A DNA stretch of 27,017 bases. It comes from a virus. The notes under the pieces are model-generated. The model was given only the letters and a program-made list of their open reading frames with translations. It did not search any database and was not told the origin of the DNA. The position numbers and the translations under genes are program-made. The stretch lies in the UHGV virus genome UHGV-0430895; one strand, 5' to 3'. Shown here one piece after another: positions 4,696-27,017 of this stretch (the stretch's first letter is position 1; every line of letters begins with the position of its first letter).

Positions 4696-6609
4696 TCAGG
4701 CTGCCGGGCTGTTCACTTCCACTGTCAGCGTGTCAATCCACGTTTCATACGTGGCTGTATTCGACGCATCCGTCAGAATAAGCGTGTTTTCCTGTCCTTC
4801 ATATTTAAAACAGGACAGCTGTGTGGTCGGGGCTTTTACCGTATCCACGTATGGCGTCACCGTGTTCTGGCCTCCTCCCGGATATACCAGCTCCAGTGTG
4901 TGCCATTCACTGTTCAGCGTACCGTATCCCGCAACACGCGTCTGCGCTGCACCATTGTGCATCAGACTGAGTTTGCCATCCGTTTCTGTCTGCAGATAGA
5001 ACGCCACCAGGAACGGATGGGTACCGTCCGCCTTATTGGCAAATTCCACACCTTCCGGGATATCGTTTTCCTTCAGCTGCAGATACATCGCCAGGGCTAT
5101 CTGTTTTCCGTTCGCACTCCCTGGTATTTTAAAGCGACAGGTGATTTTGCCGCCGTTTTTCAGCAGTTCCGCCGCATTTGCCACTTCACGGGTCAGCTTC
5201 AGGTTCATTGCTTCATCCTGGCTCAGTTTCAGCGCCCGCCCGGAAGTACTGCTTTCATCCTGTACCACTTCCGCCTTACCTTCGCTCAGCGTCCAGCCCT
5301 GTTCGGCATAAGCACCTTCACTTTCTGCACCGCTGTACAGGGTGGTAACGTTACTCTTCGGTTTTGCCGGTTCCGGATAGTTTTCCGTTATATCTCCACC
5401 GGCAAGGAACGGTCCGTTACGCCCTGCATGGGTCAGGATTGCGGTGGCTATACGGTCCGGCAGGATGCCGCGACGGGCCCAGGAACTGAAATGCATGGCG
5501 CGTGTCGGGTTCGTCCAGTTACCCGCCGTGCGTGATGCTGCACCGTAATAATTTGCTTCGGGCACATCCGGATCTTCTGCCGGGTTATTGGTCGGAACAT
5601 TCGCACCGGTCTCATCCTTCATGAGTTCGACAAAATGCACATTCGGCTCACTGTTTTTACGGTACGCGCCATAAACCAGGCTGTATTGTGTCGGGTACTG
5701 CTGCTTCCACCAGAAGGTGGTATCACCACATACCCACGGTACGCGGGCCGCATCACCACCCAGACACTGACCGGCATATGCCGCCAGATCGGTACGGAAC
5801 TGCTTCACCATGGCCGTAAACAACGCCGGATGCCCCGTGTAACCTGAAGACATACAGTCACCCTCGCCCTGCATCCAGTACACGGCCAGCAGGACGTTTT
5901 TCGCGTTCTTTTCAAGGGCGGCCTTCGTGCGGGCAATTAAATCCATGTACAACGGTTTACCCACACCCCAGCGGGAGGAATCCGCTGTTGCCCCCGTCTC
6001 CGGGTTATAGGTACCCTCATCACGATCGGTAAACGCAGAGCCGCCACGACTGCACGGCACAATCAGGATCCCCGCATTAACCGGAATATAGGGCAGAAGA
6101 CGTTTGGCAATATGCAGGCCGTGCCCGACACAACCATACTGACCACGGGAAAGGTCCGCGTTGGGGTGATTTTTGGCACTCATGTCTTCAACGTCATGGA
6201 GACAGTGATCGGCCTCAATCACATCGTTGTATTTACAGGCAGCACCACCCGGTCGGACCACACTGCGGCGGGCCAGCTGCTTAATGCGTGGATCGGGACG
6301 GTCGTAGCTGTCAGGCAGGGGCATACCTTCGCCGGTTGCCATATTGTTGGACTGACCTGCGGTGACCAGCACATAGTAATATTCAGGCTCACGGGTCGGC
6401 TCGCTCACCACCGCACCGCCTTCCTCCGGTGTCACCACGACAGGCGTGGTGACATCCCCTTCTGCGGCAATCGCCTGCATCAGGGTATAAGGGGTAATGG
6501 CGACCGGGCTGCCAAACGGCTGCCAGCCTTCCTTCAGTTTTTGAGTCAGTCGCTCCGCAAGGTCTGACGGCGACGCCGCCCTGACCACGTCATAGTGTTT
6601 AAATGCCAT
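4696..6609 (-). CDS. nanS-p: NanS-p type 9-O-acetyl-sialic acid esterase (DUF1737 N-terminal domain + SASA/SGNH esterase)
   Basis: 637 aa; N-terminus MAFKHYDVV...LKEGWQPFGSPV (DUF1737) and central GQSNNMATG esterase motif. This is the gene normally found between stxB and S in Stx phages. Confidence 0.8.
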   Translation of the reverse strand: MAFKHYDVVRAASPSDLAERLTQKLKEGWQPFGSPVAITPYTLMQAIAAEGDVTTPVVVTPEEGGAVVSEPTREPEYYYVLVTAGQSNNMATGEGMPLPDSYDRPDPRIKQLARRSVVRPGGAACKYNDVIEADHCLHDVEDMSAKNHPNADLSRGQYGCVGHGLHIAKRLLPYIPVNAGILIVPCSRGGSAFTDRDEGTYNPETGATADSSRWGVGKPLYMDLIARTKAALEKNAKNVLLAVYWMQGEGDCMSSGYTGHPALFTAMVKQFRTDLAAYAGQCLGGDAARVPWVCGDTTFWWKQQYPTQYSLVYGAYRKNSEPNVHFVELMKDETGANVPTNNPAEDPDVPEANYYGAASRTAGNWTNPTRAMHFSSWARRGILPDRIATAILTHAGRNGPFLAGGDITENYPEPAKPKSNVTTLYSGAESEGAYAEQGWTLSEGKAEVVQDESSTSGRALKLSQDEAMNLKLTREVANAAELLKNGGKITCRFKIPGSANGKQIALAMYLQLKENDIPEGVEFANKADGTHPFLVAFYLQTETDGKLSLMHNGAAQTRVAGYGTLNSEWHTLELVYPGGGQNTVTPYVDTVKAPTTQLSCFKYEGQENTLILTDASNTATYETWIDTLTVEVNSPAA

Positions 6610-6834: not shown

Positions 6835-7108
6835 TATCCATAAGAAAGCCCCTCCGGAGAGGGGCTGACGCTGCGTATCTGTATCATCATGCGCATGGTG
6901 CCGGGTGCCTCCCGGTGAGTTCAGTATCAGCACCTGAACCCGCACAGAAAGGATAAGGCTAAACGAAAACACCTGTACTGATATGCCCCGCCGCTGAGGG
7001 GGATTCACCATGCGACGCGATTTTTAACAAATTCGCAGTCAGTCAGACAATAATCAACTTGCTGAATTGTGAGGTATTTAAAAATTTCACCAGCTAACTG
7101 ATACCAGG

Positions 7109-7273
7109 CTAACCGTCTGGTGTTTTCTTTTTCAGCAACGGGAAAACAACAACCACAACACCAGCCACCAGCATCCCATCTGCCAGCACTGACATTATCC
7201 GGCTGCTGAAGTCCACCATCACGACAAGAAACAGCAGAACTACCACAATGGCCAGGCGCAGTTTTACCGTCAC
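7109..7273 (-). CDS. Candidate 54-aa two-TM membrane protein, translationally coupled to the TerB-like gene (below ORF-track cutoff)
   Basis: GTG start overlaps the TerB-like stop (GTGA overlap), with GGAG 8 nt upstream. Translation (M)TVKLRLAIVVVLLFLVVMVDFSSRIMSVLADGMLVAGVVVVVFPLLKKKTPDG, verified codon by codon. Confidence 0.45.
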   Translation of the reverse strand: MTVKLRLAIVVVLLFLVVMVDFSSRIMSVLADGMLVAGVVVVVFPLLKKKTPDG

Positions 7274-7701
7274 AGGTGATTCTCCAGACGAAGGCCCAGA
7301 ACACCGGCTATCTCTTCCAGCACCTTGCGCTCTTCCGGCTCAATTTCGCCATCTGATTCCGCAATGGCCACCGCCACATCCAGTACATCTTCCGCTTCTC
7401 GCATATCGTGTTTCACGTCCTCGATCTCACGTAACGCTGCACGACGACCTATTTTGAAGTTGGTGTCCAGCTGACCAGTGATGGTTGCGCTAATCGCATT
7501 AATTTCTGACGTAAACGCTGACAATGCAGGTTGGTTACGCAGTACCTGTTCGATCTTCGCTTTCTCGGAAGCCTCACACTCACCATCTGCATAAGCCACC
7601 AGGTATGCAGCGTTAATCACCGCCTGGGCCAGATCGCGTTTTTCAAACTTTTTAATTTCCGCTGCCGCTCTGCGGGTTTTCTTTTTGAAGATTCCAAACA
7701 T
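7270..7701 (-). CDS. TerB-like (tellurite-resistance TerB domain) protein, prophage moron
   Basis: 144 aa from MFGIFKKK. Helical, acidic, with AAYLVAYADGECEASEKAKIEQVL and IAESDGEIEPEERKVLEEIAGVLGL repeats typical of the TerB fold. Confidence 0.6.
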   Translation of the reverse strand: MFGIFKKKTRRAAAEIKKFEKRDLAQAVINAAYLVAYADGECEASEKAKIEQVLRNQPALSAFTSEINAISATITGQLDTNFKIGRRAALREIEDVKHDMREAEDVLDVAVAIAESDGEIEPEERKVLEEIAGVLGLRLENHL

Positions 7702-7833
7702 CGTGACGTTCCTTTGGGTGGGTGAGCCAACGCCCGGGAGCGATCTGCCCACAGAGAAAGTCACACTGACCACTCCGTAAGCTCACCCCCGAAAGGCTCT
7801 GTGGTTGATATGCGCCGGGCGTGGCGCGGATAC

Positions 7834-8463: not shown

Positions 8464-8540
8464 TGGCGCGTTGTACTGGATTCGAACCAGTGACCGATTG
8501 CTTAGAAGGCAATTGCTCTGTCCGGCTGAGCTAACAACGC
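8464..8540 (-). tRNA. tRNA-Arg (anticodon TCT)
   Basis: Manual cloverleaf: acceptor GCGTTGT/ACAACGC, D-arm GCTC...GAGC, anticodon stem ATTGC/GCAAT with loop CTTCTAA, T-loop TTCGAAT, 3' CCA encoded. Confidence 0.8.
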
Positions 8541-8553
8541 AGGGTACGGATAA

Positions 8554-8630
8554 TGGACCGCCATCGAGGACTCGAACCCCGCGCAACCAGCTTCGAAGGC
8601 TGGCGCTCTATCCCGATGAGCTAATGGCGG
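8554..8630 (-). tRNA. tRNA-Arg (anticodon TCG)
   Basis: Manual cloverleaf: anticodon stem CCAGC/GCTGG with loop CTTCGAA, T-arm CGGGG-TTCGAGT-CCTCG, 3' CCA encoded. Exact ends are uncertain by a few nt. Confidence 0.7.
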
Positions 8631-8637
8631 TATGTGA

Positions 8638-8713
8638 TGGTGGCCCTTGCTGGATTTGAACCAGCGACCTGGCGATTATGAGTCGCTCGCTCTCACCACT
8701 GAGCTAAAGGGCC
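8638..8713 (-). tRNA. tRNA with CAT anticodon (Ile2/Met type, ileZ-like of Stx phages)
   Basis: Manual cloverleaf: acceptor GGCCCTT, D-arm GCTCAGTGGTGAGAGC, anticodon loop CTCATAA, T-loop TTCAAAT, 3' CCA encoded. Same position as ileZ-argN-argO in Stx phages. Confidence 0.75.
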
Positions 8714-8753: not shown

Positions 8754-9812
8754 TCATCCGTTCTGACTGATAAAATCCTGAACTTCCCTGACTGTCTGCT
8801 CAAAACGTCCGGTCTCCAGCTCAACACCAATCGCCCGACGTCCCAGTGACAGCGCCGCTTTTACCGTTGAACCTGACCCCATGAAAAAATCTGCAATCAG
8901 GTCACCCGGACGACTGCTCGCACTGATTATCTGCCGCAGCATTTCTGCCGGTTTTTCGCACGGATGTTTCCCGGGATAGTACTGCACCGGTTTATGCGTC
9001 CACACATCCGTGTACGGCACCTGCGCCGTCACGCCAAAATACCGCCGCAGATGCTTATATTCACTCTGCAGTTCCGCATACTGCCGGTTCAGTGAAGTAT
9101 ACGTCTCCAGCAGCTGGTGGTGGGGCTTTTCCAGTTCACCCCGCTGATGCTTCTCTTCTGCCACCCGGGCAAACAGCGCCTGTAATTTCAGATAATCACT
9201 TTCGTCCGGTAGCTGCCACTGACTGGCACTGAACCAGTGCGACACCATGTTTTTCTTTCCTGTGGCATCCACTATCTGTTTTGCCGTTATCCCCAGGGCA
9301 GCGCGCGCATCACGAAAGTAAGCAATCAGCGGGGCCATCACATGCTGTTTCAGTGCCCTGCCCTTCGCCTCATACCCGGCATCTTTCGGACGATACGGCC
9401 CCTGATAATGTTCCGCGAACAGAATGCGCTCTGTGGCGGGGAAATACGCCCTCAGGCTTTCCTTGTTGCACCCGTTCCAGCGTCCGGACGGCTTCGCCCA
9501 GATGATATGGTTCAGTACGTTAAACCGCTCACGCATCATGATTTCGGTGTCAGATGCCAGGCGATGCCCACAGAACAGGTAAAGGCTTCCGGCAGGTTTT
9601 AACACCCGCCAGAACTGCGCCAGACACTGGTCCAGCCACTTCAGGTAATCATCGTCGCCCTTCCACTGGTTATCCCAGCCCTCAGGCTTCACTTTAAAGT
9701 ACGGCGGGTCCGTGACTATCAGGTCAACAGAATTTTCGGGTAACGACCGGATAAATTCCAGGCAGTCGGCGTTGATTAACTCACAACTGGATATTTTTAC
9801 AGTATTAAGCAT
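8754..9812 (-). CDS. Orphan DNA N6-adenine/N4-cytosine methyltransferase (beta-class, DPPY)
   Basis: 352 aa; N-terminal catalytic motif IV (LIVTDPPYF) and C-terminal SAM-binding motif I (DFFMGSGST). No adjacent restriction endonuclease. Confidence 0.8.
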   Translation of the reverse strand: MLNTVKISSCELINADCLEFIRSLPENSVDLIVTDPPYFKVKPEGWDNQWKGDDDYLKWLDQCLAQFWRVLKPAGSLYLFCGHRLASDTEIMMRERFNVLNHIIWAKPSGRWNGCNKESLRAYFPATERILFAEHYQGPYRPKDAGYEAKGRALKQHVMAPLIAYFRDARAALGITAKQIVDATGKKNMVSHWFSASQWQLPDESDYLKLQALFARVAEEKHQRGELEKPHHQLLETYTSLNRQYAELQSEYKHLRRYFGVTAQVPYTDVWTHKPVQYYPGKHPCEKPAEMLRQIISASSRPGDLIADFFMGSGSTVKAALSLGRRAIGVELETGRFEQTVREVQDFISQNG

Positions 9813-13223: not shown

Positions 13224-13379
13224 TTACTTCTCAGATTCGTAGTCTACGAAGACAGCGACCTCCGTCTGGCCGGTTCGGATTCGTACCTCGCAGAGGTCTT
13301 TCCTCGTTACCAGTGCCGTCACTATGACGGTTAAACAGATGACAATCAGGGCGATTAACATCGCCTTTTGCTGCTTCAT
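13224..13379 (-). CDS. hokD: Hok/Gef-family type I toxin (HokD/RelF-like)
   Basis: MKQQKAMLIALIVICLTVIVTALVTRKDLCEVRIRTGQTEVAVF... is essentially the HokD sequence as I recall it. The upstream region is strongly structured (9-bp inverted repeat CTGTCTGCC/GGCAGACAG). Confidence 0.8.
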   Translation of the reverse strand: MKQQKAMLIALIVICLTVIVTALVTRKDLCEVRIRTGQTEVAVFVDYESEK

Positions 13380-13624
13380 AGCCTGCTTCTCCTTGCCTTT
13401 CGGCACGTAAGAGGCTAACCTACATGTGCAAAGCATGAAATTGGCCTCAGATTAATGTTAAGCGTCTTGCCGGACGCGTAATGTTAACTGGGGCTTTTCT
13501 CTGTCTGCCTTACGGTGGCATGCCCGAGGCAGACAGCCTCAAGCACCCGCAGCAATTCTACTTAACTCTCGCTTTACCGCAAACCGTTTTTACCCGATAT
13601 GGGAATCCCCATATCGCAATGAAA

Positions 13625-18144: not shown

Positions 18145-18516
18145 ATGCAAAAAAAAGAAATTCGCCGTTTACGTCTCAAGGAGTGGTTTAAAGATAAAAC
18201 TCTGCCACCCAAAGAGAAGAGCTACCTATCTCAACTAATGAGCGGGAGAGCCTCGTTTGGAGAAAAGGCTGCCAGAAGAATAGAGCAAACATACGGGATG
18301 CCGGAAGGGTATTTGGATGCGGAATACGCAGAACAACCGGAGGTTTCTCCGCCACATGCAGGGTTAACGTCTAATCAACTGGAATTATTGCAGATTTTTT
18401 CAGCCTTCCCTGAGGATGAGCAACGCCAGATAATCAGCGAGTTAAAACAGAAAAAAGAATCAATGGAAGATCTCATAGCGAGATGGATTGCGGCGCAAAA
18501 ATGCCGCCGCGCCTAA
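18145..18516 (+). CDS. dicA: DicA-like prophage repressor (XRE HTH, no S24 peptidase domain)
   Basis: HTH (LSQLMSGRASFGEKAARRIEQTYGMPEGYL) and a C-terminal LTSNQLELLQIFSAFPEDEQ motif paralleling DicA's LSPKELELLELFNALPESEQ. Confidence 0.7.
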   Translation: MQKKEIRRLRLKEWFKDKTLPPKEKSYLSQLMSGRASFGEKAARRIEQTYGMPEGYLDAEYAEQPEVSPPHAGLTSNQLELLQIFSAFPEDEQRQIISELKQKKESMEDLIARWIAAQKCRRA

Positions 18517-18536
18517 GTTATAAAACCGGAGGAAAC

Positions 18537-18728
18537 ATGAATAGAGCCCTTTCACCAATGGTTTCTGAGTTTGAAACCATTGAACAAGAAAACAGTTACA
18601 ACGAATGGCTGCGTGCGAAAGTAGCAACGAGCCTTGCAGATCCGCGCCCAGCAATTCCCCATGACGAAGTTGAGCGCAGAATGGCAGAACGCTTTGCTAA
18701 AATGCGCAAGGAACGGAGCAAGCAGTAA
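18537..18728 (+). CDS. ParD-like type II antitoxin
   Basis: 63 aa with GGAGG RBS; C-terminal LADPRPAIPHDEVERRMAERFAKMRKE resembles ParD-family antitoxin tails. Its stop is 1 nt from the toxin start. Confidence 0.6.
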   Translation: MNRALSPMVSEFETIEQENSYNEWLRAKVATSLADPRPAIPHDEVERRMAERFAKMRKERSKQ

Positions 18729-18729
18729 A

Positions 18730-19008
18730 ATGTTACCCGTGTTATGGCTTGAAAGCGCAGATACCGACCTAGATGATATAACTAGTTATATTGCTCGTTT
18801 CGACATAGATGCGGCAGAACGCTTATGGCAGCGATTAAGGGGTTGTGTGCTGCCGTTATCCGAACATCCGTATTTATACCCACCAAGCGACAGAGTACCT
18901 GGCTTGCGTGAGATTGTGGCCCACCCTAACTATATAATTCTATACCGCGTAACAACATCAAGCGTTGAAGTAGTAAACGTGATCCACGCAAGACGCCAGT
19001 TTCCCTAA
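18730..19008 (+). CDS. ParE/RelE-superfamily type II toxin
   Basis: 92 aa; C-terminal YIILYRVTTSSVEVVNVIHARRQF matches the ParE signature (YRI...V.I.RV.H.R). Confidence 0.7.
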   Translation: MLPVLWLESADTDLDDITSYIARFDIDAAERLWQRLRGCVLPLSEHPYLYPPSDRVPGLREIVAHPNYIILYRVTTSSVEVVNVIHARRQFP

Positions 19009-19835: not shown

Positions 19836-20024
19836 ATGGAAACGTTATTACCAAACGTTAATACGTCTGACGGTTGTTTCGATATTGGTGTTCTGCTCAG
19901 TAACCGGGAGTTTACTGAAGATGCCATTAAGATGAGAAAATATGAGCCTTATCTTCTCAATGATAATTCCATACTCTCCAGAATTGCCCTTCTTGAACTT
20001 GGTATTTTCGGAGAATGTCAATGA
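19836..20024 (+). CDS. dicB: DicB cell-division inhibitor (Kil-like)
   Basis: 62 aa; METLLPNVNTSDGCFDIGVLLSN..FTEDAIKMRK... closely parallels K-12 DicB (MKTLLPNVNTSEGCFEIGV...FTEDAINKRK). Confidence 0.85.
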   Translation: METLLPNVNTSDGCFDIGVLLSNREFTEDAIKMRKYEPYLLNDNSILSRIALLELGIFGECQ

Positions 20025-20209
20025 CTTCAGCATTTGCACTGGTGATGACGGTTTTTCTTATAACGGGTGAATCACAGAATGTGATTACCGGAATTTATGC
20101 CAGTAAAGAATCCTGCCATCAGGCAAGAGACGAGCAAAAAATTTCCGGTGAATGTCTCCCGTTAAACAAAGTATCGCTGTACCTGAATAACGAAATACCG
20201 GCTGGATAA
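20015..20209 (+). CDS. ydfD: YdfD-like small membrane protein
   Basis: 64 aa with an N-terminal TM segment (MSMTSAFALVMTVFLITG); overlaps the dicB stop, as ydfD follows dicB in Qin. Confidence 0.6.
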   Translation: MSMTSAFALVMTVFLITGESQNVITGIYASKESCHQARDEQKISGECLPLNKVSLYLNNEIPAG

Positions 20210-20301: not shown

Positions 20302-22791
20302 ATGAGCACTGATAAAGAAGAAATTGCACTGTATTACGAAGCCAAAAATGACAAAGTCAGAAAACGCCTTGGGATTAAAGGCGGTTTTTACTGGCGCACA
20401 GCAAAAAAATTATCGGTTGCAATATCACGGGGTGTTGTCGCAATGGACGATGCTGGATTTGACGAAGAGGATTTCAAAAAACCTGTTCGCGTGAATTTGC
20501 CCATTGTTAATGACCTGCCGCCTGAAGGTGTGTTTGATACCGAATTCTGCAACCGCTATGAAAAAGGCGGGGAAGATGGCATCACCATGATGGCTATACC
20601 CTTCAATGACAACATCAACGGTGAAGATGCCACAACTGCTGGCGATGACAACGATGACCCGGACGGAACTATTCCGGATGATGTGGAGAAAAACGAATCC
20701 CCGGACAGCGACGATGACTGTTCTGAGTGTGAAATTCCCGTCGCCACTCTGAGCCTTACTCATCGCTTCCTTCACCTCTTCTTATTCAGCAAAGATGAAG
20801 ATGGAAAATACCGGCATCATGCCACACCAGAACAACGCAATAACGTGATCCGTATGGAGATGGACACAGAGGACAGTTACCTTCAGAGCCTGCTTACTGC
20901 TGTGCGTTCACATCCAGAACTGGATAAGCTGACGAATTATCATCTGGGAAGACTGGCACAATCCGTTGGAAAGGCATTCTCTCACTCAACAACCCGTCAT
21001 ATCGGCCCGGCCGAATTCGACAAGTTCATCTCCACCTGGATGAAAACAGACTATGTGGATCAGGGATTGCTGACAAAAGAATGGCAGAAAGGAAATTGTG
21101 TTACAGGCATCACCCGTACGCCTTCCGGTGCTAACGCTGGCGGCGGAAATCTTACCGATCGTGGCGAAGGCTTTACCCACAATCAGGCATCACTGGCGCG
21201 AGACATTGCCACTGGCGTTCTTGCCCGTTCAATGGATGTGGATATTTATAACCTGCACCCTGCACATGCAAAACGCGTTGAAGAAATCGTTGCAGAGAAT
21301 AAACCGCCCTTTTCTGTTTTCCGTGACAAATTCATCGCCATGCCCGGTGGGCTGGATTATTCCCGCGCCATTGTGGTGGCTTCCGTAAAAGAAGCACCAA
21401 TCGGCATTGAGGCTATCCCGGCGCGCGTGACTGAATATCTCAACAAAGTGTTGACCGAAACCGATCATGCCAACCCTGATCCGGAAATCGTGGATATTGC
21501 CTGCGGTCGCTCATCAGCCCCGATGCCGCAGCGCGGAACAAAAGAAGGAAAACAGGATGATGAAGAAAAACCGCAGCCATCTGGCGCAATGGCAGATGAA
21601 CAGGCAACGGCTGAAACAATGGCAGCGGATACAGTTGAACATCATCAGGATCCGCAGCCGCTGGATGATAAGTCACAGATAAAAGTTACCGCTGAAGAAG
21701 TAAATAAAATTATGGAGGCAGCAAACATCAGTCGACCAGATGCCGACAAATTGCTTGCCGCTTCTCGTGGTGAGTTTGTTGAAGGGATTAGCGACCCGAA
21801 TGATCCAAAATGGGTGAAGGGGATTGAAACCCGCGATTCGGTGAACCATAACCAGCAAGAAACGGAACAGAAAGGCCATAAAGCGGAACAACACAGTCCA
21901 AATGCGCAACAAAACGAGCCAGAAACGAAACAGCCTGAACCAGTAGCGCAACAGGAACCGGAAAAAGTCTGCACAGCCTGCGGTCAGACCGGCGGCGGCA
22001 ACTGTCCTGACTGTGGCACGGTGATGGGCGACGCAACATACCATGAGACATTCAACGAAGAAAGTCAGGATGAAGCCCGGGAAAAAGATCCGGAGGAAAT
22101 GGAAAGTGCCGGACTCCCGAACAAGGAGTGCACCGAAGGCGATCAACATGCCAATGGCAATAATGAAACAGGCGAGACAGCAAATCTCTTAATTAAGGTG
22201 AACGGTCATCGTGAAATCACATCCACCAGCAGGTTGTGGCACCATCTGATGATTGACCTTGAAACAATGGGCAAAAATCCTGACGCACCAATAGCCTCAA
22301 TAGGCGCTGTATTTTTCGATCCACAAACCGGAGAGCAGGGGCCTGAATTCAGCAAAATAATTGATATGGGTACATGTGGCGGCACTGTCGACATAAGCAC
22401 AATCGAATGGTGGCTGGTACAGTCCAGCGAGGCCAGAACTGCAATTTTGGTAAATCAAATCCCATTAGATGATGCGCTGCTGCAACTCAAGGAATTCATC
22501 AGCGAGCATTCAGATGAAAAATTCGTGCAGGTATGGGGCAATGGTGCAACTTTCGACAACGTGATTTTACGCCGTTCATACGAACGACAGGGTATCCCCT
22601 GCCCGTGGCGCTACTGCAACGATCGCGATGTACGCACAATCGTTGAGCTGGGGAAAGCCATAGACTTCGATGCCAGAACGGCTATTCCATTCGAAGGTGA
22701 GCGCCATAATGCACTTGATGACGCTCGTTACCAGGCAAAATACGTTTCAGCTATCTGGCAAAAACTGCTCCCGAGTCAGGCTGATTTTTAA
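20302..22791 (+). CDS. Large (829 aa) prophage protein with central Cys4 zinc ribbon and C-terminal DEDDh 3'-5' exonuclease domain
   Basis: C-terminal motifs MIDLETMG (Exo I), [10 protein letters not shown] (Exo II) and HNALDDARY (Exo III); [16 protein letters not shown] zinc ribbon; acidic, low-complexity central region. It sits where recE/exo lies in lambdoid phages. Confidence 0.7.
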
Positions 22792-22852: not shown

Positions 22853-23122
22853 ATGAGCGAACAGTACCTGATAACGCTCGATGAGTGGAAGCCAAAACGG
22901 TTCAGTCTCCCAATAACAAACACTACCCTAGTGAAATACGGAAAACTAGGATACATCGTTCCAAGACCACAAAAAATTCGTGGGCGTTGGCTGATAGATC
23001 GCCGAGCAGTATTTGTTGGACCTGGTGAAACAGGAATTGCGCCGGAAATTCATACTGGCGATGATGATGCACTGAAGGAGATTTTAACTCATGTCACCGA
23101 GGCCACGAAAAAACAGCACTGA
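22853..23122 (+). CDS. xis: Excisionase (Xis)
   Basis: 89 aa from MSEQYLITLDEWKPK with GGAG RBS, directly upstream of and overlapping int. Confidence 0.65.
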   Translation: MSEQYLITLDEWKPKRFSLPITNTTLVKYGKLGYIVPRPQKIRGRWLIDRRAVFVGPGETGIAPEIHTGDDDALKEILTHVTEATKKQH

Positions 23123-24209
23123 CGTAGCCGGACTTTACGAAAAATTTGATCGCAGAACTGGCAGAGTTTACTACCAGTATAAAAACCCTGTGACTGGAAA
23201 ATTTCACGGGCTCGGAACAGACAAAGGTAAGGCAGAAAAAATCGCTTCCACAGCCAATCAGCGAATAGCTGCAGCAGAGGCTGAATATTTCATGCGCAAA
23301 ATTGATGAAAGTCCGTCAGCAACAAAGCGTCGGGGTATCAGATTAAAGGCATGGGTTGATCGATATCTGAAAATACAGGACACGCGACTGAAAAATGGAG
23401 ATATTGCAGCTACAACCCACAAAGAAAAAGTGCGAATGGCTGCATACCTGGTTTCCCGCCTGGGAAACCACCCATTGAAAGAACTGGAGGTAAGAGACTT
23501 TGCATTAATACTGGACGAGTGGATGGATAAAGACATGGTCAGCACAGCAAGAGTAAATCGCGGATTATGGGTTGATATTTATAAAGAAGCACAGCATGCA
23601 GGGGAAGTTCCTCCTGGATGGAATCCTCCGGAGGCTACCCGTAAACCGATCCCTAAAGTGACCAGATCCAGACTCACCCTGGAAGACTGGCAAAAAATTT
23701 ACAACGCAACGCCTGAAAAACACTTTATCCGTAACGCAATGCTTCTTGCGATTGTTACTGGTCAGCGCCGTGATGACATTTGCCACATGCGTTTTTCAGA
23801 TGTGTGGAACGAACACTTGCATATCACCCAGGGAAAAACCGGAATGCGTCTGGCGTTACCGCTTACACTACGCTGTGATGCCATTGGGATAACGTTAAAA
23901 GAAGTTATTGATGGGTGCCGAGACAGAATATTAAGTCCATATCTAATCCATAGTCGGCACCAGAAACAACCAAAGCCGATGAGTAAAGACAACCTGAGCG
24001 ACTACTTTGCCAAAGCACGGGATCTGGCTGGGATAACTCCACCAGCAGGAAAAACTCCGCCAACATTTCATGAACAACGCTCCCTGTCAGAACGACTGTA
24101 CCGCGCGCAGGGTATTGATACAAAAACATTACTGGGACATAAAGTCCAGGCAACCACCGATCGTTATAACGATACTCGTGGTCAGGAATGGGTTAAATTG
24201 GTTGTTTGA
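23091..24209 (+). CDS. int: Tyrosine integrase (lambda Int family)
   Basis: 372 aa with a catalytic C-terminal domain (R...HxxR...Y pattern: AIVTGQRRDD, FHEQRS, LLGHK...DRY). Last prophage gene before a convergent terminator. Confidence 0.85.
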   Translation: MSPRPRKNSTDVAGLYEKFDRRTGRVYYQYKNPVTGKFHGLGTDKGKAEKIASTANQRIAAAEAEYFMRKIDESPSATKRRGIRLKAWVDRYLKIQDTRLKNGDIAATTHKEKVRMAAYLVSRLGNHPLKELEVRDFALILDEWMDKDMVSTARVNRGLWVDIYKEAQHAGEVPPGWNPPEATRKPIPKVTRSRLTLEDWQKIYNATPEKHFIRNAMLLAIVTGQRRDDICHMRFSDVWNEHLHITQGKTGMRLALPLTLRCDAIGITLKEVIDGCRDRILSPYLIHSRHQKQPKPMSKDNLSDYFAKARDLAGITPPAGKTPPTFHEQRSLSERLYRAQGIDTKTLLGHKVQATTDRYNDTRGQEWVKLVV

Positions 24210-24285: not shown

Positions 24286-24753
24286 CTAATCTTGATCAGG
24301 TTCCTGCTTAGAATAATGTTTTCCAACAATAAATGCCGTAACCAATGCAACAAGATCTATTGAAACGAGAGTTCCGGCAAGAACTGTCTCCCCCATGACG
24401 CCAAAGACAGTGGCAGCTAAGATGATCAATATTGCCAACCAAAAAGCCTTTGTTTGACCATCTCTGGCAATATCAATGCTATCAGCCACTGTTTTATGGC
24501 GATGAGCCTGCTCTTTTTCGGTCAACTCAACAAGTCGATTTGCAAGCCCAGGCACCAGTTGATCATACTTTTTAAGCATTGAAGGTGGCGGAACAGGCCC
24601 CTGAAAATGCTGGCAAACAATAGCCCGCACCTGCGGACTATCCAAAACCCTGTTTAAGACCTCTGGATTTTCGATTACTCGAGAAACCAGTTCATTATCC
24701 TTTTGTTCTTCACAAGTGAGTTTGGTGTTCTCACTTTCTTTTTGATCTGGCAT
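24286..24753 (-). CDS. Membrane protein (DUF2335-like), outside the prophage or at its edge
   Basis: 155 aa with two C-terminal TM helices (AFWLAILIILAATVFGVMG, LVSIDLVALVTAFIVG). Confidence 0.5.
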   Translation of the reverse strand: MPDQKESENTKLTCEEQKDNELVSRVIENPEVLNRVLDSPQVRAIVCQHFQGPVPPPSMLKKYDQLVPGLANRLVELTEKEQAHRHKTVADSIDIARDGQTKAFWLAILIILAATVFGVMGETVLAGTLVSIDLVALVTAFIVGKHYSKQEPDQD

Positions 24754-24952
24754 TGTTCAGCTTTTCAACGTTAACGGATACCATTGCTTTTTGGAAATCG
24801 CCTCTGATAGCCGCAGCATCCTGACGCAAAGCGGAAACTGGATTCGCTGGCATACCATTTGCTGAAACGACCGTCGGGCTCAGGGCTATAACCGAGCCAA
24901 TGGCTTGTAACAAAGCCACACTTTTACGCTTCATAGTCACTCCTGAGTTCAA
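24731..24952 (-). CDS. Small secreted protein (signal peptide)
   Basis: MKRKSVALLQAIGSVIALSPTVVSA signal-like N-terminus; overlaps the downstream gene start. Confidence 0.4.
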   Translation of the reverse strand: MNSGVTMKRKSVALLQAIGSVIALSPTVVSANGMPANPVSALRQDAAAIRGDFQKAMVSVNVEKLNNARSKRK

Positions 24953-25416
24953 TGGGATTCAAAACGGATTCAAAGTGAATCTTGATAGCTAATTCTAATA
25001 CCACATTATGTGGTTTTTCAACACGAAGAAATCACATCAAAAATCTCATTCGGAAAGCGATATGGGTAAACAAACTGGAATACTTTTCTGTCCTAGTAAG
25101 CTCACCCATGTATAAAAATGCTGTAAAATGCGTGGTCCTGTTTTGGGGAAAAGTTTTGGAGAGATTTTGGAGAAAGGAAAAAATTGAATAAATTCAAAAT
25201 CCTGAAAGTGTCCCGCCTTATGAATAAGAAGGCAACAGAAATAGACGATTAGTGTTTTATATTCAAAAGGTTAATAGCAAATTTGGCATGCTTTTTACTG
25301 TCGAGTAAACTGCATGCCTCTATCCATAAAATCAAACAGTTGCAATCTAATTTTGGAGAACGTTTTTTCTTCTCCCTTTTAGTAAATCGCTATAAAAAAC
25401 AACAAATGATATAAAA

Positions 25417-25748
25417 ATGAACAATCCTAATCCATGCATGACGTGTGGTGCCTGTTGTGCATTTTCCGCGTCTCTTTTTACTGGGCTGAAGCAGATGATG
25501 CTGGCGGCACCATCCCCGTAACGATGACAGAACAAATCTCTCCGTACCATCGATGCATGCAGGGCACTAACCAGAAAAATCCTCGCTGTGTGGCCCTGTT
25601 CGGTGAGCCGGGAGTCAATGCCTGCTGCAGCATTTATGAAAATCGCTCATCCACCTGTAGAGAATTTCCGATGTCCGGCGAGAATGGTGTGATTAATGAA
25701 GCATGTAATCGTGCACGGGCGAAATACAGGCTACCCCCACTTTCCTAA
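25417..25748 (+). pseudogene. ykgJ: YkgJ-family (CxxCGxCC Fe/Zn-binding) gene with a -1 frameshift in a T-run
   Basis: Frame A (25417..25521) encodes [16 protein letters not shown] then stops. Frame B (25434..25748) encodes the rest ([15 protein letters not shown]...[16 protein letters not shown]). One extra T in the T4 run at 25462-25465 fuses them into a 110-aa protein. Confidence 0.6.
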
Positions 25749-26037
25749 ACGCGAGCGGTATCACTGTAATGGATGGTTTTCTATGCGAACATTCTAGATG
25801 TCTTAACAACTCACTTATTGTAATCAAGTTTCTTTCTTCTGGTCGGGGAGCATGTTGCTCCCCTTTTTTTATTGCATCATTACGGCAGCCACTGCACAGA
25901 GCGTTACCACCGTACCCAGCCACACAAAAAGCATGAAACACATCGCTCCTGCTGTGTAGCGCTTCTTTACGTATTTCAGATTTGCCTGTTTCATGACAAT
26001 TTACCAGATTGCTCTTCAGTACCGGATAACAATACGG

Positions 26038-26511
26038 CTATGCCCGTCCCACCAGGTGCTTCACACTCCTGTACCTCAGACCATTTTTACCAAGCCCCAG
26101 ATACAGAAAGGTGTTCACCGTCTTCGTGTTTATCCCCATTTCACGCGCAAGATGACACGGCTTTGACTCACGGTACACATAACCAAACATCACCACCATC
26201 TCGGACATCGTCAGAGGACGCGCATACGTGTTCTGCACCCAGTCACCGTTACGGATTTTCCTGTATGCATCCAGACGCCCCGTCATCTCCTCCGCATCCA
26301 GCTGAAGATAACGGCGTCCCTGAAACATACAGCACATCAGCCTGCCAAGCAGCGCATCACAGATAATCACCCATGATTCATCATGCTCCGGTGTGTGCTT
26401 CCTGTTCTCCGGCATAAAAAACTCCCGGGCCAGTATGACACTGTACCCCTCAAGCATCTGTTGCAGGCCATACTCCAGATAACGGTTGCGGGTCGCCAGA
26501 ATCACCTTCAT
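26038..26511 (-). CDS. LuxR/FixJ-type HTH protein (C-terminal HTH, atypical N-terminal domain)
   Basis: C-terminal LTMSEMVVMFGYVYRESKPCHLAREMGINTKTVNTFLYLG fits the LuxR-type HTH pattern. Confidence 0.5.
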   Translation of the reverse strand: MKVILATRNRYLEYGLQQMLEGYSVILAREFFMPENRKHTPEHDESWVIICDALLGRLMCCMFQGRRYLQLDAEEMTGRLDAYRKIRNGDWVQNTYARPLTMSEMVVMFGYVYRESKPCHLAREMGINTKTVNTFLYLGLGKNGLRYRSVKHLVGRA

Positions 26512-26540
26512 CGCATCTCCTCACTGTCTCTGAACACATG

Positions 26541-26576
26541 AAAAAAAACGGCAGGCCAAAATCCCGCGCCTGCCGT
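26541..26576 (-). terminator. Intrinsic terminator downstream of the autotransporter gene
   Basis: 9-bp stem ACGGCAGGC/GCCTGCCGT followed on the minus strand by TTTTTTTT. Confidence 0.6.
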
Positions 26577-26600
26577 CATGCTTCATGTCACTGTCAGCAA

Positions 26601-27017
26601 TTAAAACTCGAAGTTAACGCCCACGTTGTAAGAAACGTCACCGTCGCTTGCTGCAATACCCGCTTTCGCTGCGGTCTGCTCATTGAAACGGTAGCCAACA
26701 CCGACAGCAACGGCCTGTTTGTCACTGTAACCACCCAGGGCTGCCGTGGCGTTGAATTTGCCCACACTGTACGGCTGGAACAGACCGGCAAGTGCCGCAC
26801 TCTGTGCCGCTGCGCGTTTCATCTCTTCGTGGTTTTCACGAATCTGGCGTTGATGGTCATTCAGACGCGCATTGTGCTCCTGCAGCTGGCGGCTGTTTGA
26901 CTGAATCGCTTTTCTGTTGGTTGCAATGTCCTGGCTGTTAGTTCTTACAGATTTATCAAGGTCAACCACCGCTTCATTTACGCGTTTGGTTGTCTGCGTG
27001 TTACGGGCAGTGGTCAG
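26601..27017 (-). CDS. Trimeric autotransporter adhesin, C-terminal YadA-like membrane anchor (partial; 5' end outside window)
   Basis: Reading frame is open to the window edge. Coiled-coil stalk then anchor ...[41 protein letters not shown]...YNVGVNFEF, typical of YadA/Eib-type beta-barrel anchors. Confidence 0.7.

Follow-up and report, generated by a model that had tools for sequence, protein, structure and literature searches.

A fusion of the RecE N-terminal region to a predicted DexA-like DEDDh exonuclease domain in a Qin/Rac-like lambdoid prophage

What does the N-terminal region of the recombination exonuclease RecE do in a protein that ends in a different type of nuclease and has no annealing protein encoded beside it? 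This question is raised by a gene in the virus genome UHGV-0430895, of which a stretch of 27,017 nucleotides (hereafter the window) was analyzed; the window comprises only part of a prophage, ~24 kb. The gene is an open reading frame (ORF) with an ATG start at 20302..22791 on the + strand and encodes 829 amino acids (aa). An initial annotation, made from the sequence alone, had read it as a multidomain protein with a zinc ribbon, a long acidic region and a DEDDh exonuclease domain, placed where recE or exo would be expected, different from RecE and possibly of regulatory or anti-defense function. The extent and strand of the ORF and the nature of its C-terminal nuclease were borne out exactly. 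In addition, residues 1-631 were found to match the ~600-residue N-terminal region of RecE, a region to which, to our knowledge, no function has been assigned for decades. We propose, with confidence and doubt in about equal parts, that the protein is an early-operon 3'-5' exonuclease for DNA ends that acts alone, is positioned by its RecE-derived module and leaves recombination to the host.

Domain architecture of the protein

Two Pfam matches were found in the protein, PF06630 (Enterobacterial exodeoxyribonuclease VIII) at residues 56-197 and PF16473 (Rv2179c-like 3'-5' exonuclease) at residues 647-819, a combination that is already catalogued and whose genes carry the RefSeq name 3'-5' exonuclease. 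The NCBIfam exonuclease VIII equivalog NF007259 additionally covered residues 1-631 with its model positions 1-602 of 877; its total of 810.8 bits remained below the curated cutoff of 1269 because the remainder of the model has no counterpart in the protein. In a BLASTP comparison with K-12 RecE, residues 58-631 aligned with RecE 50-591 at 54% identity, ribbon included, and identity was ~85% from about residue 246 on, as read off the alignment by eye. K-12 RecE is composed of PF06630 and PF12684, the latter being its PD-(D/E)XK nuclease domain, which spans RecE residues 615-850. No Pfam match to PF12684 was found in the 829-aa protein, and no BLASTP alignment extended past RecE residue 591. 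As the RecE match ends at residue 631, PF12684 is absent and a DEDDh domain stands in its place, the gene encodes a chimeric phage protein, the product of a clean domain swap, with the RecE N-terminal module in residues 1-631 followed by a DEDDh nuclease. The homology to RecE stops within a disordered acidic linker, and standalone DEDDh proteins start at the equivalent of residues 645-649.

The initial statement that the protein differs from RecE thus stands for the nuclease, which is of the DEDDh and not of the PD-(D/E)XK type, and does not stand for the N-terminal part. Among the observations that the initial annotation had set against its own view, an N-terminus matching RecE was found, whereas an adjacent recT was not.

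The segments of the gene are as follows.

20302..22791, + strand: whole ORF, 829 aa, joining the RecE N-terminal region to a DexA/Rv2179c-like DEDDh exonuclease domain
20302..20601, + strand: folded alpha/beta domain A at the start of the RecE N-terminal module, residues 1-100 (AlphaFold2, AF2, predicted local distance difference test score, pLDDT, ~73-92; overlaps PF06630)
20602..20724, + strand: acidic linker, predicted disordered, residues 101-141, ~40% D/E (from composition and AF2)
20734..21531, + strand: all-helical domain B, residues 145-410, where the RecE N-terminal module is most strongly conserved (searches by fold and by sequence found no relative)
21112..21168, + strand: glycine-rich loop in domain B, residues 271-289 (invariant columns in two alignments, A2 and A3; low pLDDT)
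21535..21966, + strand: long low-confidence or disordered region rich in E, Q and P, residues 412-555, with short weak helices at 464-505 (AF2)
21970..22014, + strand: four-cysteine zinc-ribbon-like motif CTAC-x7-CPDC (C557, C560, C568, C571; from sequence, with low AF2 confidence)
22015..22239, + strand: acidic disordered linker with the swap point (RecE homology ends at residue 631, nt 22194)
22240..22758, + strand: predicted DEDDh 3'-5' exonuclease domain, residues 647-819 (PF16473)
22255-22257, + strand: catalytic codon D652
22261-22263, + strand: catalytic codon E654
22555-22557, + strand: catalytic codon D752
22705-22707, + strand: catalytic codon H802
22720-22722, + strand: catalytic codon D807

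The DEDDh nuclease domain

The match to PF16473 spans the whole model (positions 1-177 of 177; E 3.5e-67, 226 bits versus a cutoff of 27), and the DEDDh pentad is complete, with D652 and E654 in the motif MIDLET, D752 in ATFDN, and H802 and D807 in HNALDD. Of 171 homologues with the fusion, 170-171 keep these five catalytic positions, as do 44-45 of 45 homologues that stand alone, and this conservation across both forms indicates that the active site is under selection. The AF2 model of residues 632-829, built from 43 sequences, had a mean pLDDT of 88.7 and a DnaQ-type, RNase H-like fold. In a Foldseek search of the PDB, its best match was T4 DexA (8KEL; E 3.2e-11, TM-score 0.72), followed by RNase T, a Cas2-DnaQ domain and the oligoribonucleases REXO2 and Orn. 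T4 DexA (8KEL/8KEN) was likewise the only sequence match in the PDB (E 8.6e-7) and is itself a member of PF16473. The motifs, the conservation of their residues and the predicted fold all agree with the DnaQ/RNase T-like domain that had been described from sequence, and a metal-dependent 3'-5' exonuclease activity is predicted for it. By tblastn, the domain is present in 726 phage records, including large Vibrio, Acinetobacter (as 'exonuclease A'), Pseudomonas, Rhizobium and Bacillus phages, a distribution that marks it as a module of phage DNA metabolism in general and not of lysogens in particular.

The structure of DexA, an enzyme that scavenges host DNA, was solved by Kang et al. (NAR 2025; PMC12153337), in whose work DexA and its E. 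coli homologue EcD are 3'-5' DNA exonucleases. EcD digests T4 DNA and does not digest unmodified double-stranded DNA (dsDNA), and plasmid-borne EcD protects cells, a strategy named 'HREX' (PMC12153337). The same paper reports that T4 DexA also has a part in intron homing, in which double-strand breaks are repaired. Besides the T4 enzyme, EcD was the only enterobacterial PF16473-family member with biochemical data that the literature search found.

The substrate of the domain is a point on which the family name and the nearest relatives differ. Pfam describes PF16473 as a 3'-5' exoribonuclease domain named after Rv2179c, RNase T, Orn and REXO2 are close structural neighbors, and the prophage has three tRNA genes, all of which would fit an RNA- or nucleotide-directed regulatory or anti-defense enzyme. 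Its putative targets would be RNA 3' ends (phage tRNA precursors or the xis-int message), nanoRNAs or signaling oligonucleotides of host immunity. We consider such an enzyme highly unlikely, since DexA, to which the domain is closest in sequence as well as in structure, is a DNA exonuclease, and since a domain joined to the N-terminal module of a nuclease for DNA recombination is more likely to work in a DNA context. Further, no homologue was reported as anti-defense in the literature found, and no known anti-defense genes are co-localized in the window. The regulatory or anti-defense role suggested at the outset therefore gained nothing from the analysis, the characterized relatives of the domain, DexA and EcD, both acting on DNA.

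The RecE-derived N-terminal module

An AF2 model of residues 1-640 was built on a 29-sequence alignment with identities of 29-85%. It consists of a confident alpha/beta domain in residues 1-100, a disordered acidic stretch in residues 101-141, a mostly confident helical domain in residues 145-410 (pLDDT mostly 80-94) and a largely disordered part in residues 412-640, within which the ribbon is modeled at low confidence. The long acidic region of the initial annotation was recovered as residues 101-140, with 40% D/E, and residues 561-620, with 28-33% D/E, in a protein with an isoelectric point of 4.7. The CxxC...CxxC ribbon was also recovered ahead of the nuclease (C557/C560 and C568/C571), and it reads CTAC...CPDC here versus CNAC...CPDC in K-12 RecE. 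Zinc-ribbon Pfam families gave only sub-threshold matches to this four-cysteine motif. The ribbon and the acidic linkers are part of RecE's own N-terminal region.

Within the helical domain, the loop at residues 271-289 has six positions, T273, A279, G280, G281, D286 and R287, that are invariant even across clades only ~30% identical overall. A search for known motif or fold matches to this glycine-rich loop found none; binding or catalysis by the RecE N-terminal module could take place here.

In order to identify other proteins harboring the module, residues 1-630 were used as the query in an exhaustive HMMER search of 1.84 billion representatives at 50% identity, which returned only 227 clusters. 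Among the best 150 of these 227 clusters, the C-terminal end was a DEDDh domain in 15 and a PD-(D/E)XK domain in 21, 45 long proteins had neither, and one was a fusion of the module to RecT. Many of the nuclease-less proteins (examples are P0241, P0280, P0302, P0312 and P0353) have a common ~50-residue tail with the motif QQLTIAALQGLCANP (tail pattern LTYxQQLTIAALQGLCANPAY..DDLPxMA), and others have two further tail types; a Pfam scan of the three tail types matched no family. These nuclease-less forms are probably the 'RecE-2' proteins, RecE relatives without a nuclease domain that Zheng et al. (Genome Res 2025; PMC12315714) describe.

The RecE N-terminal module thus seems to serve as a platform whose C-terminal partner can be swapped. 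Its retention next to a nuclease of predicted opposite polarity, with RecT missing, indicates that its work depends neither on RecT nor on 5'-3' resection, and the fusion is a natural domain-swap experiment on RecE that isolates the N-terminal module. In RecE itself, the N-terminal region is dispensable for RecET recombination and is reported to enhance linear-linear recombination (reviewed in PMC11611040).

Gene neighborhood and absence of an annealase

The genes around the exonuclease gene are as follows.

19836..20024, + strand: dicB, upstream, probably in the same operon
20015..20209, + strand: DUF1482/ydfD-like gene, upstream, probably in the same operon; this order is repeated in E. coli loci
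22853..23122, + strand: excisionase gene (xis), downstream
23091..24209, + strand: lambda-type integrase gene (int), downstream

The stop codon of the exonuclease gene is followed by xis after 61 bases, a gap that leaves no room for a further gene between the two. Among 31 ORFs, comprising those of the early-left operon and the larger ones elsewhere in the window, no Pfam match to RecT, Bet, Erf or a Rad52-type annealase was found. No annealase is annotated in PPompW_132418, which is deposited as a complete prophage genome, or in vB_EcoS-813R8, a partial phage record that runs from the tail genes to int. The initial observation of a missing annealase neighbor is thereby upheld for the flanking genes and extended to the window ORFs scanned and to these two records.

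Ten loci with the DEDDh fusion were compared, namely the window, E. coli GE3, vB_EcoS-813R8, PPompW_132418, TUM2802, FORC_081, TKEC21-59, CAU16175, Enterobacter ludwigii and Kosakonia. All ten have the order DUF1482/ydfD (or its remnant), exonuclease, xis and int, without recT. In all three loci with a PD-(D/E)XK recE (K-12 Rac and two from Salmonella), recT follows recE. In this small sample, the type of nuclease co-varies with the presence of an annealase, in 10 of 10 and 3 of 3 loci, respectively. With a DEDDh in place of a PD-(D/E)XK nuclease and neither recT nor bet beside its gene, the protein therefore does not belong to a classical exonuclease/annealase pair.

Several E. coli strains carry the full order of dicA-type repressor, ydfA, ydfB, ydfC, dicB, ydfD, exonuclease, xis and int, either at the Qin site next to rspB, where two further loci retain remnants of this arrangement, or at ompW. 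The prophage is a Qin/Rac-like lambdoid prophage. A promoter and terminator scan of 17.6-24.4 kb found promoter-like sites to be no commoner than in shuffled sequences, giving no support for a promoter of the gene's own, and the DicF small RNA (sRNA) upstream of dicB was not found at the Rfam gathering score. Intact Qin-site prophages of other strains carry the fusion in the ydfE slot. K-12 ydfE (Qin) was considered as a remnant of the fusion gene and rejected, as BLASTP detected no similarity (E 3.4); K-12 exoD (DLP12), considered as a possible DEDDh fragment, was also rejected for lack of similarity.

A toxin-antitoxin pair was observed further upstream, where an inserted PaaA2-type antitoxin gene (18483-18728, + strand) and ParE toxin gene (~18730-19008, + strand) separate the repressor-like gene from the DUF1391/dicB block. 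The pair is not at that spot in the E. coli relatives examined.

Distribution of the fusion and of standalone homologues

The identical protein is known only from one ENA contig. The proteins closest to it are from E. coli, at 84% identity; they carry the names 'exonuclease' or '3'-5' exoribonuclease' and without exception combine PF06630 with PF16473. The 561 bases coding for the DEDDh domain were found at an identity of at least 80% in 4,057 of 5,426 complete E. coli genomes (~75%), at up to seven places per genome. The fusion is hence a common, already annotated prophage gene family of which the window copy is an 84%-identity variant, and one of the commonest E. coli prophage nuclease genes has a function that is only predicted. 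Divergent fusions, 721-861 aa in length, were found in species of Enterobacter, in Kosakonia, Atlantibacter and Scandinavium and, once, in Citrobacter farmeri. A search of species-representative genomes recovered only three loci, none of which matched beyond the N-terminal portion of the query (residues 21-631 and 1-489).

Prophages of Salmonella, Klebsiella, Raoultella and Citrobacter carry the DEDDh nuclease as a standalone gene, coding for 186-189 aa with 57-64% identity to the C-terminal domain. In the Salmonella and Raoultella prophages this gene is in the int-proximal slot, with at most one early-left gene between it and xis or int. A DndB-like gene (PF14072) directly precedes the Salmonella standalone gene and lies two genes upstream of the one in Raoultella (L033 4743-5852 and L039 4029-5126).

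The distribution bears on whether the gene has a function at all. Many E. coli copies are interrupted by insertion sequences (IS) or truncated, and the junction falls within a disordered linker, precisely at the point from which standalone DEDDh proteins extend; both would fit a functionless, decaying relic of a deletion in which a truncated recE became joined to a DEDDh gene downstream of it. However, the architecture persists in clades (Enterobacter, Kosakonia and Atlantibacter) whose N-terminal regions are only ~30-35% identical to the window copy, intact ORFs of 814-847 aa are very widespread, and the catalytic residues are kept almost throughout the fusions, as given above. A relic is, on these grounds, barely credible.

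The presence of an intact fusion in so large a share of E. coli genomes could also reflect a benefit to the host. A superinfection-exclusion or defense nuclease of the HREX kind would degrade incoming phage DNA, for example the 5-hydroxymethylcytosine (5hmC)-modified DNA of T-even phages, and so protect the lysogen. The fusion is on the same strand and in the same gene block as dicB, a gene linked to phage resistance. The precedent is EcD, a standalone homologue whose digestion of T4 DNA and protection of cells from a plasmid were described above. Against this, the proposed 5hmC-recognition residues of DexA are not kept: W152 corresponds to C772, a variable position (T in 96, W in 40, Y in 19 and C in 5 of the fusions), and D169 to A786, which is A or V in the family, in an alignment of ~28% identity whose register is uncertain at these positions.

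The comparison with EcD was made through a proxy, chosen by exact match to the paper's forward primer and one base off the reverse primer at its 3' end, which is not the published sequence. This EcD-like proxy is only 39% identical to the DEDDh domain of the fusion. It belongs to a P2-like prophage (L030 6404-6991, - strand), whose early operon has the order cox ... DEDDh, Dam, DUF4406 ... gpA; judged from this, the published EcD 'bacterial defense' gene looks more like an early gene of a phage than a defense gene of the host. By synteny the fusion lies in an early-left operon that is repressed in the lysogen, and the proxy in an early lytic operon; an uninfected lysogen would be expected to produce neither. 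Additionally, the family is common in virulent-looking phages, and PADLOC gave only a generic Cas-associated DEDDh match (E 1.7e-5) with no specific defense model. A role in host defense is therefore regarded as unlikely.

Chi sites and the recombination context

The Chi sequence GCTGGTGG occurs at 13 sites in the window (2079-24046), versus 1.06 expected from shuffled sequences and a maximum of 4 in 100 shuffles. Eleven of the 13 sites are on the - strand (binomial P ~0.02), one of them within the exonuclease gene.

22223..22230, - strand: Chi site GCTGGTGG in the exonuclease gene, antisense, in the orientation common to 10 of the other 12 sites

Two of the - strand sites are antisense inside + strand genes, those of the exonuclease and of the integrase, so the common orientation is not merely a by-product of coding direction. 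The E. coli average is ~1,008 Chi sites in 4.64 Mb, which corresponds to 5.9 in 27 kb, and the excess over this average has a Poisson P of ~0.007. Chi density in the related loci L001 and L042 is 0.44 and 0.36 per kb, respectively. Chi enrichment as a general companion of the fusion was nevertheless rejected, as it is true for the window, L001 and L042 and not for PPompW_132418.

The window encodes RusA, and no Pfam match to Gam was found among the scanned window ORFs. A 'no Rec module, high Chi' class of lambdoid phages is defined by Zheng et al. (PMC12315714), and the prophage fits this class, having no annealase or Gam match and an oriented Chi excess. The paper also describes DnaQ-type nuclease genes near int in lambdoid phages and does not count them as recombination-module genes.

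This context would also suit an annealase-independent recombination or end-joining factor, an idea that overlaps our preferred reading. The RecE N-terminal module would hold DNA ends, and the nuclease would act by one of two routes, either blunting 3' tails for RecBCD to load and reach Chi or exposing 5' single strands for annealing that needs no dedicated annealase. The module is shared with RecE, whose full-length form is reported to enhance linear-linear recombination (PMC11611040), T4 DexA has a role in intron homing (PMC12153337), RusA is encoded, and a Chi-rich, strand-biased window without Gam or annealase is in keeping with the class defined by Zheng et al. The idea is, however, wholly conjectural. 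At least one carrier prophage (L043) has no Chi enrichment, the standalone DEDDh form fills the same slot without a RecE module, and Zheng et al. exclude int-proximal DnaQ-type nucleases from recombination modules and note that such nucleases usually inhibit recombination. We therefore consider a recombination factor of this kind quite unlikely.

Proposed function

In the reading that we prefer, an early-operon exonuclease that acts alone on DNA ends, the DEDDh domain would be an active two-metal 3'-to-5' exonuclease, and its substrate, by analogy with T4 DexA and E. coli EcD, would be DNA 3' ends. The protein would be made with the early-left (dicB) operon upon induction or infection and not in the repressed lysogen. 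The RecE N-terminal module would serve as a targeting or scaffolding platform that brings the attached nuclease to the same place as RecE, probably double-strand DNA ends or replication or recombination intermediates. There, the protein would work alone in trimming ends or degrading DNA, while phage recombination would proceed via the host RecBCD-RecA pathway, with 13 Chi sites in the window, and via the phage's own RusA.

Several points weigh against this proposal. The targeting role of the N-terminal module is purely our inference, and fold and sequence searches detected no relatives of the module. We likewise infer the substrate (DNA or RNA), the polarity and the oligomeric state of the fusions, and literature searches found no characterized fusion of the RecE N-terminal region to a DEDDh domain. 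The timing of expression is taken from synteny with the K-12 dicB operon. RNA or short oligonucleotides may be the substrate, given the structural closeness to RNase T, Orn and REXO2, and Rv2179c, which gave PF16473 its name, is presumably an exoribonuclease. Chi richness is not universal among the carriers, PPompW_132418 having 4 Chi sites in 43.7 kb (0.09 per kb). Finally, 3'-5' exonucleases usually inhibit homologous recombination, according to Zheng et al. (PMC12315714).

A broader idea, which we put forward as doubtful, is that the RecE N-terminal module acts as a delivery platform complete in itself, which phages can re-arm with a 5'-3' nuclease and RecT, with a 3'-5' nuclease without RecT, or with short tails that are not nucleases. 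The DEDDh version would then represent an annealase-free strategy, trimming the 3' ends of the phage's own or of competing DNA so that RecBCD loads and reaches Chi. If true, the DEDDh-armed version would be part of a previously undescribed annealase-free strategy, and the same activity might destroy superinfecting DNA.

Other features of the prophage

Rfam matches in the window include the sok antitoxin RNA (117 bits; 13374-13548, - strand), which implies a hok/sok module, and the sRNA STnc100 (133 bits; 6836-7043, - strand). The three tRNA genes (Arg-tct, Arg-tcg and Met-cat; 8464-8713, - strand) adjoin an N6/N4 DNA methyltransferase gene (8757-9812, - strand), which matched the PADLOC type II methyltransferase model with E 6.8e-163 and lies, together with the tRNA genes, downstream of the Q/DUF1133 antiterminator. 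Between the tRNA genes and the lysis cassette, genes were found for a 637-aa protein with DUF1737, SASA (sialate O-acetylesterase-type) and DUF6645 domains (4699-6609, - strand) and for a TerB-domain protein (7273-7773, - strand); these two genes are probably moron-type cargo.

To the right of int, positions 24286-27017 contain small - strand ORFs and are presumably host flank. This flank differs from the potC, ompW and rspB integration sites of the E. coli relatives. The C-terminus of one of its ORFs (26601-26969, - strand) presumably resembles an autotransporter membrane anchor.

Comparison with known systems

The fusion shares its position near int and outside recombination modules with the DnaQ-type nucleases of Zheng et al. 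(PMC12315714), and it differs from them in that the fusion of the RecE N-terminal module to a DEDDh domain is not itself described in the available part of that paper. The standalone 186-189 aa prophage DEDDh genes differ from it in having no RecE N-terminal module, and in Salmonella and Raoultella a DndB-like gene lies upstream of them, in contrast to dicB and DUF1482 for the fusion. EcD, from E. coli, is a DexA-family DEDDh exonuclease, and the C-terminal part of the fusion likewise has homology to DexA and an intact catalytic site. EcD is, however, a standalone protein, and the EcD-like proxy has W at the position of DexA W152, where the fusion has C772.

T4 DexA (exonuclease A; 8KEL/8KEN) has in common with the fusion the PF16473 domain and an identical DEDDh pentad, and it is the best match by sequence and by structure. 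The two differ in that identity is ~23-28%, that DexA is a standalone protein of 227 aa with extra loops, and that its proposed 5hmC-recognition residues (W152 and D169) and its tetramer-forming residues are not kept in the fusion.

The RecE protein of K-12 Rac differs from the fusion in its C-terminal part and in its neighbor, as RecE has a PD-(D/E)XK 5'-3' nuclease and is accompanied by recT, whereas the fusion has a predicted DEDDh domain and no recT. The two have in common an N-terminal region with a four-cysteine ribbon and acidic linkers, the PF06630 family, and an early-left slot upstream of xis and int.

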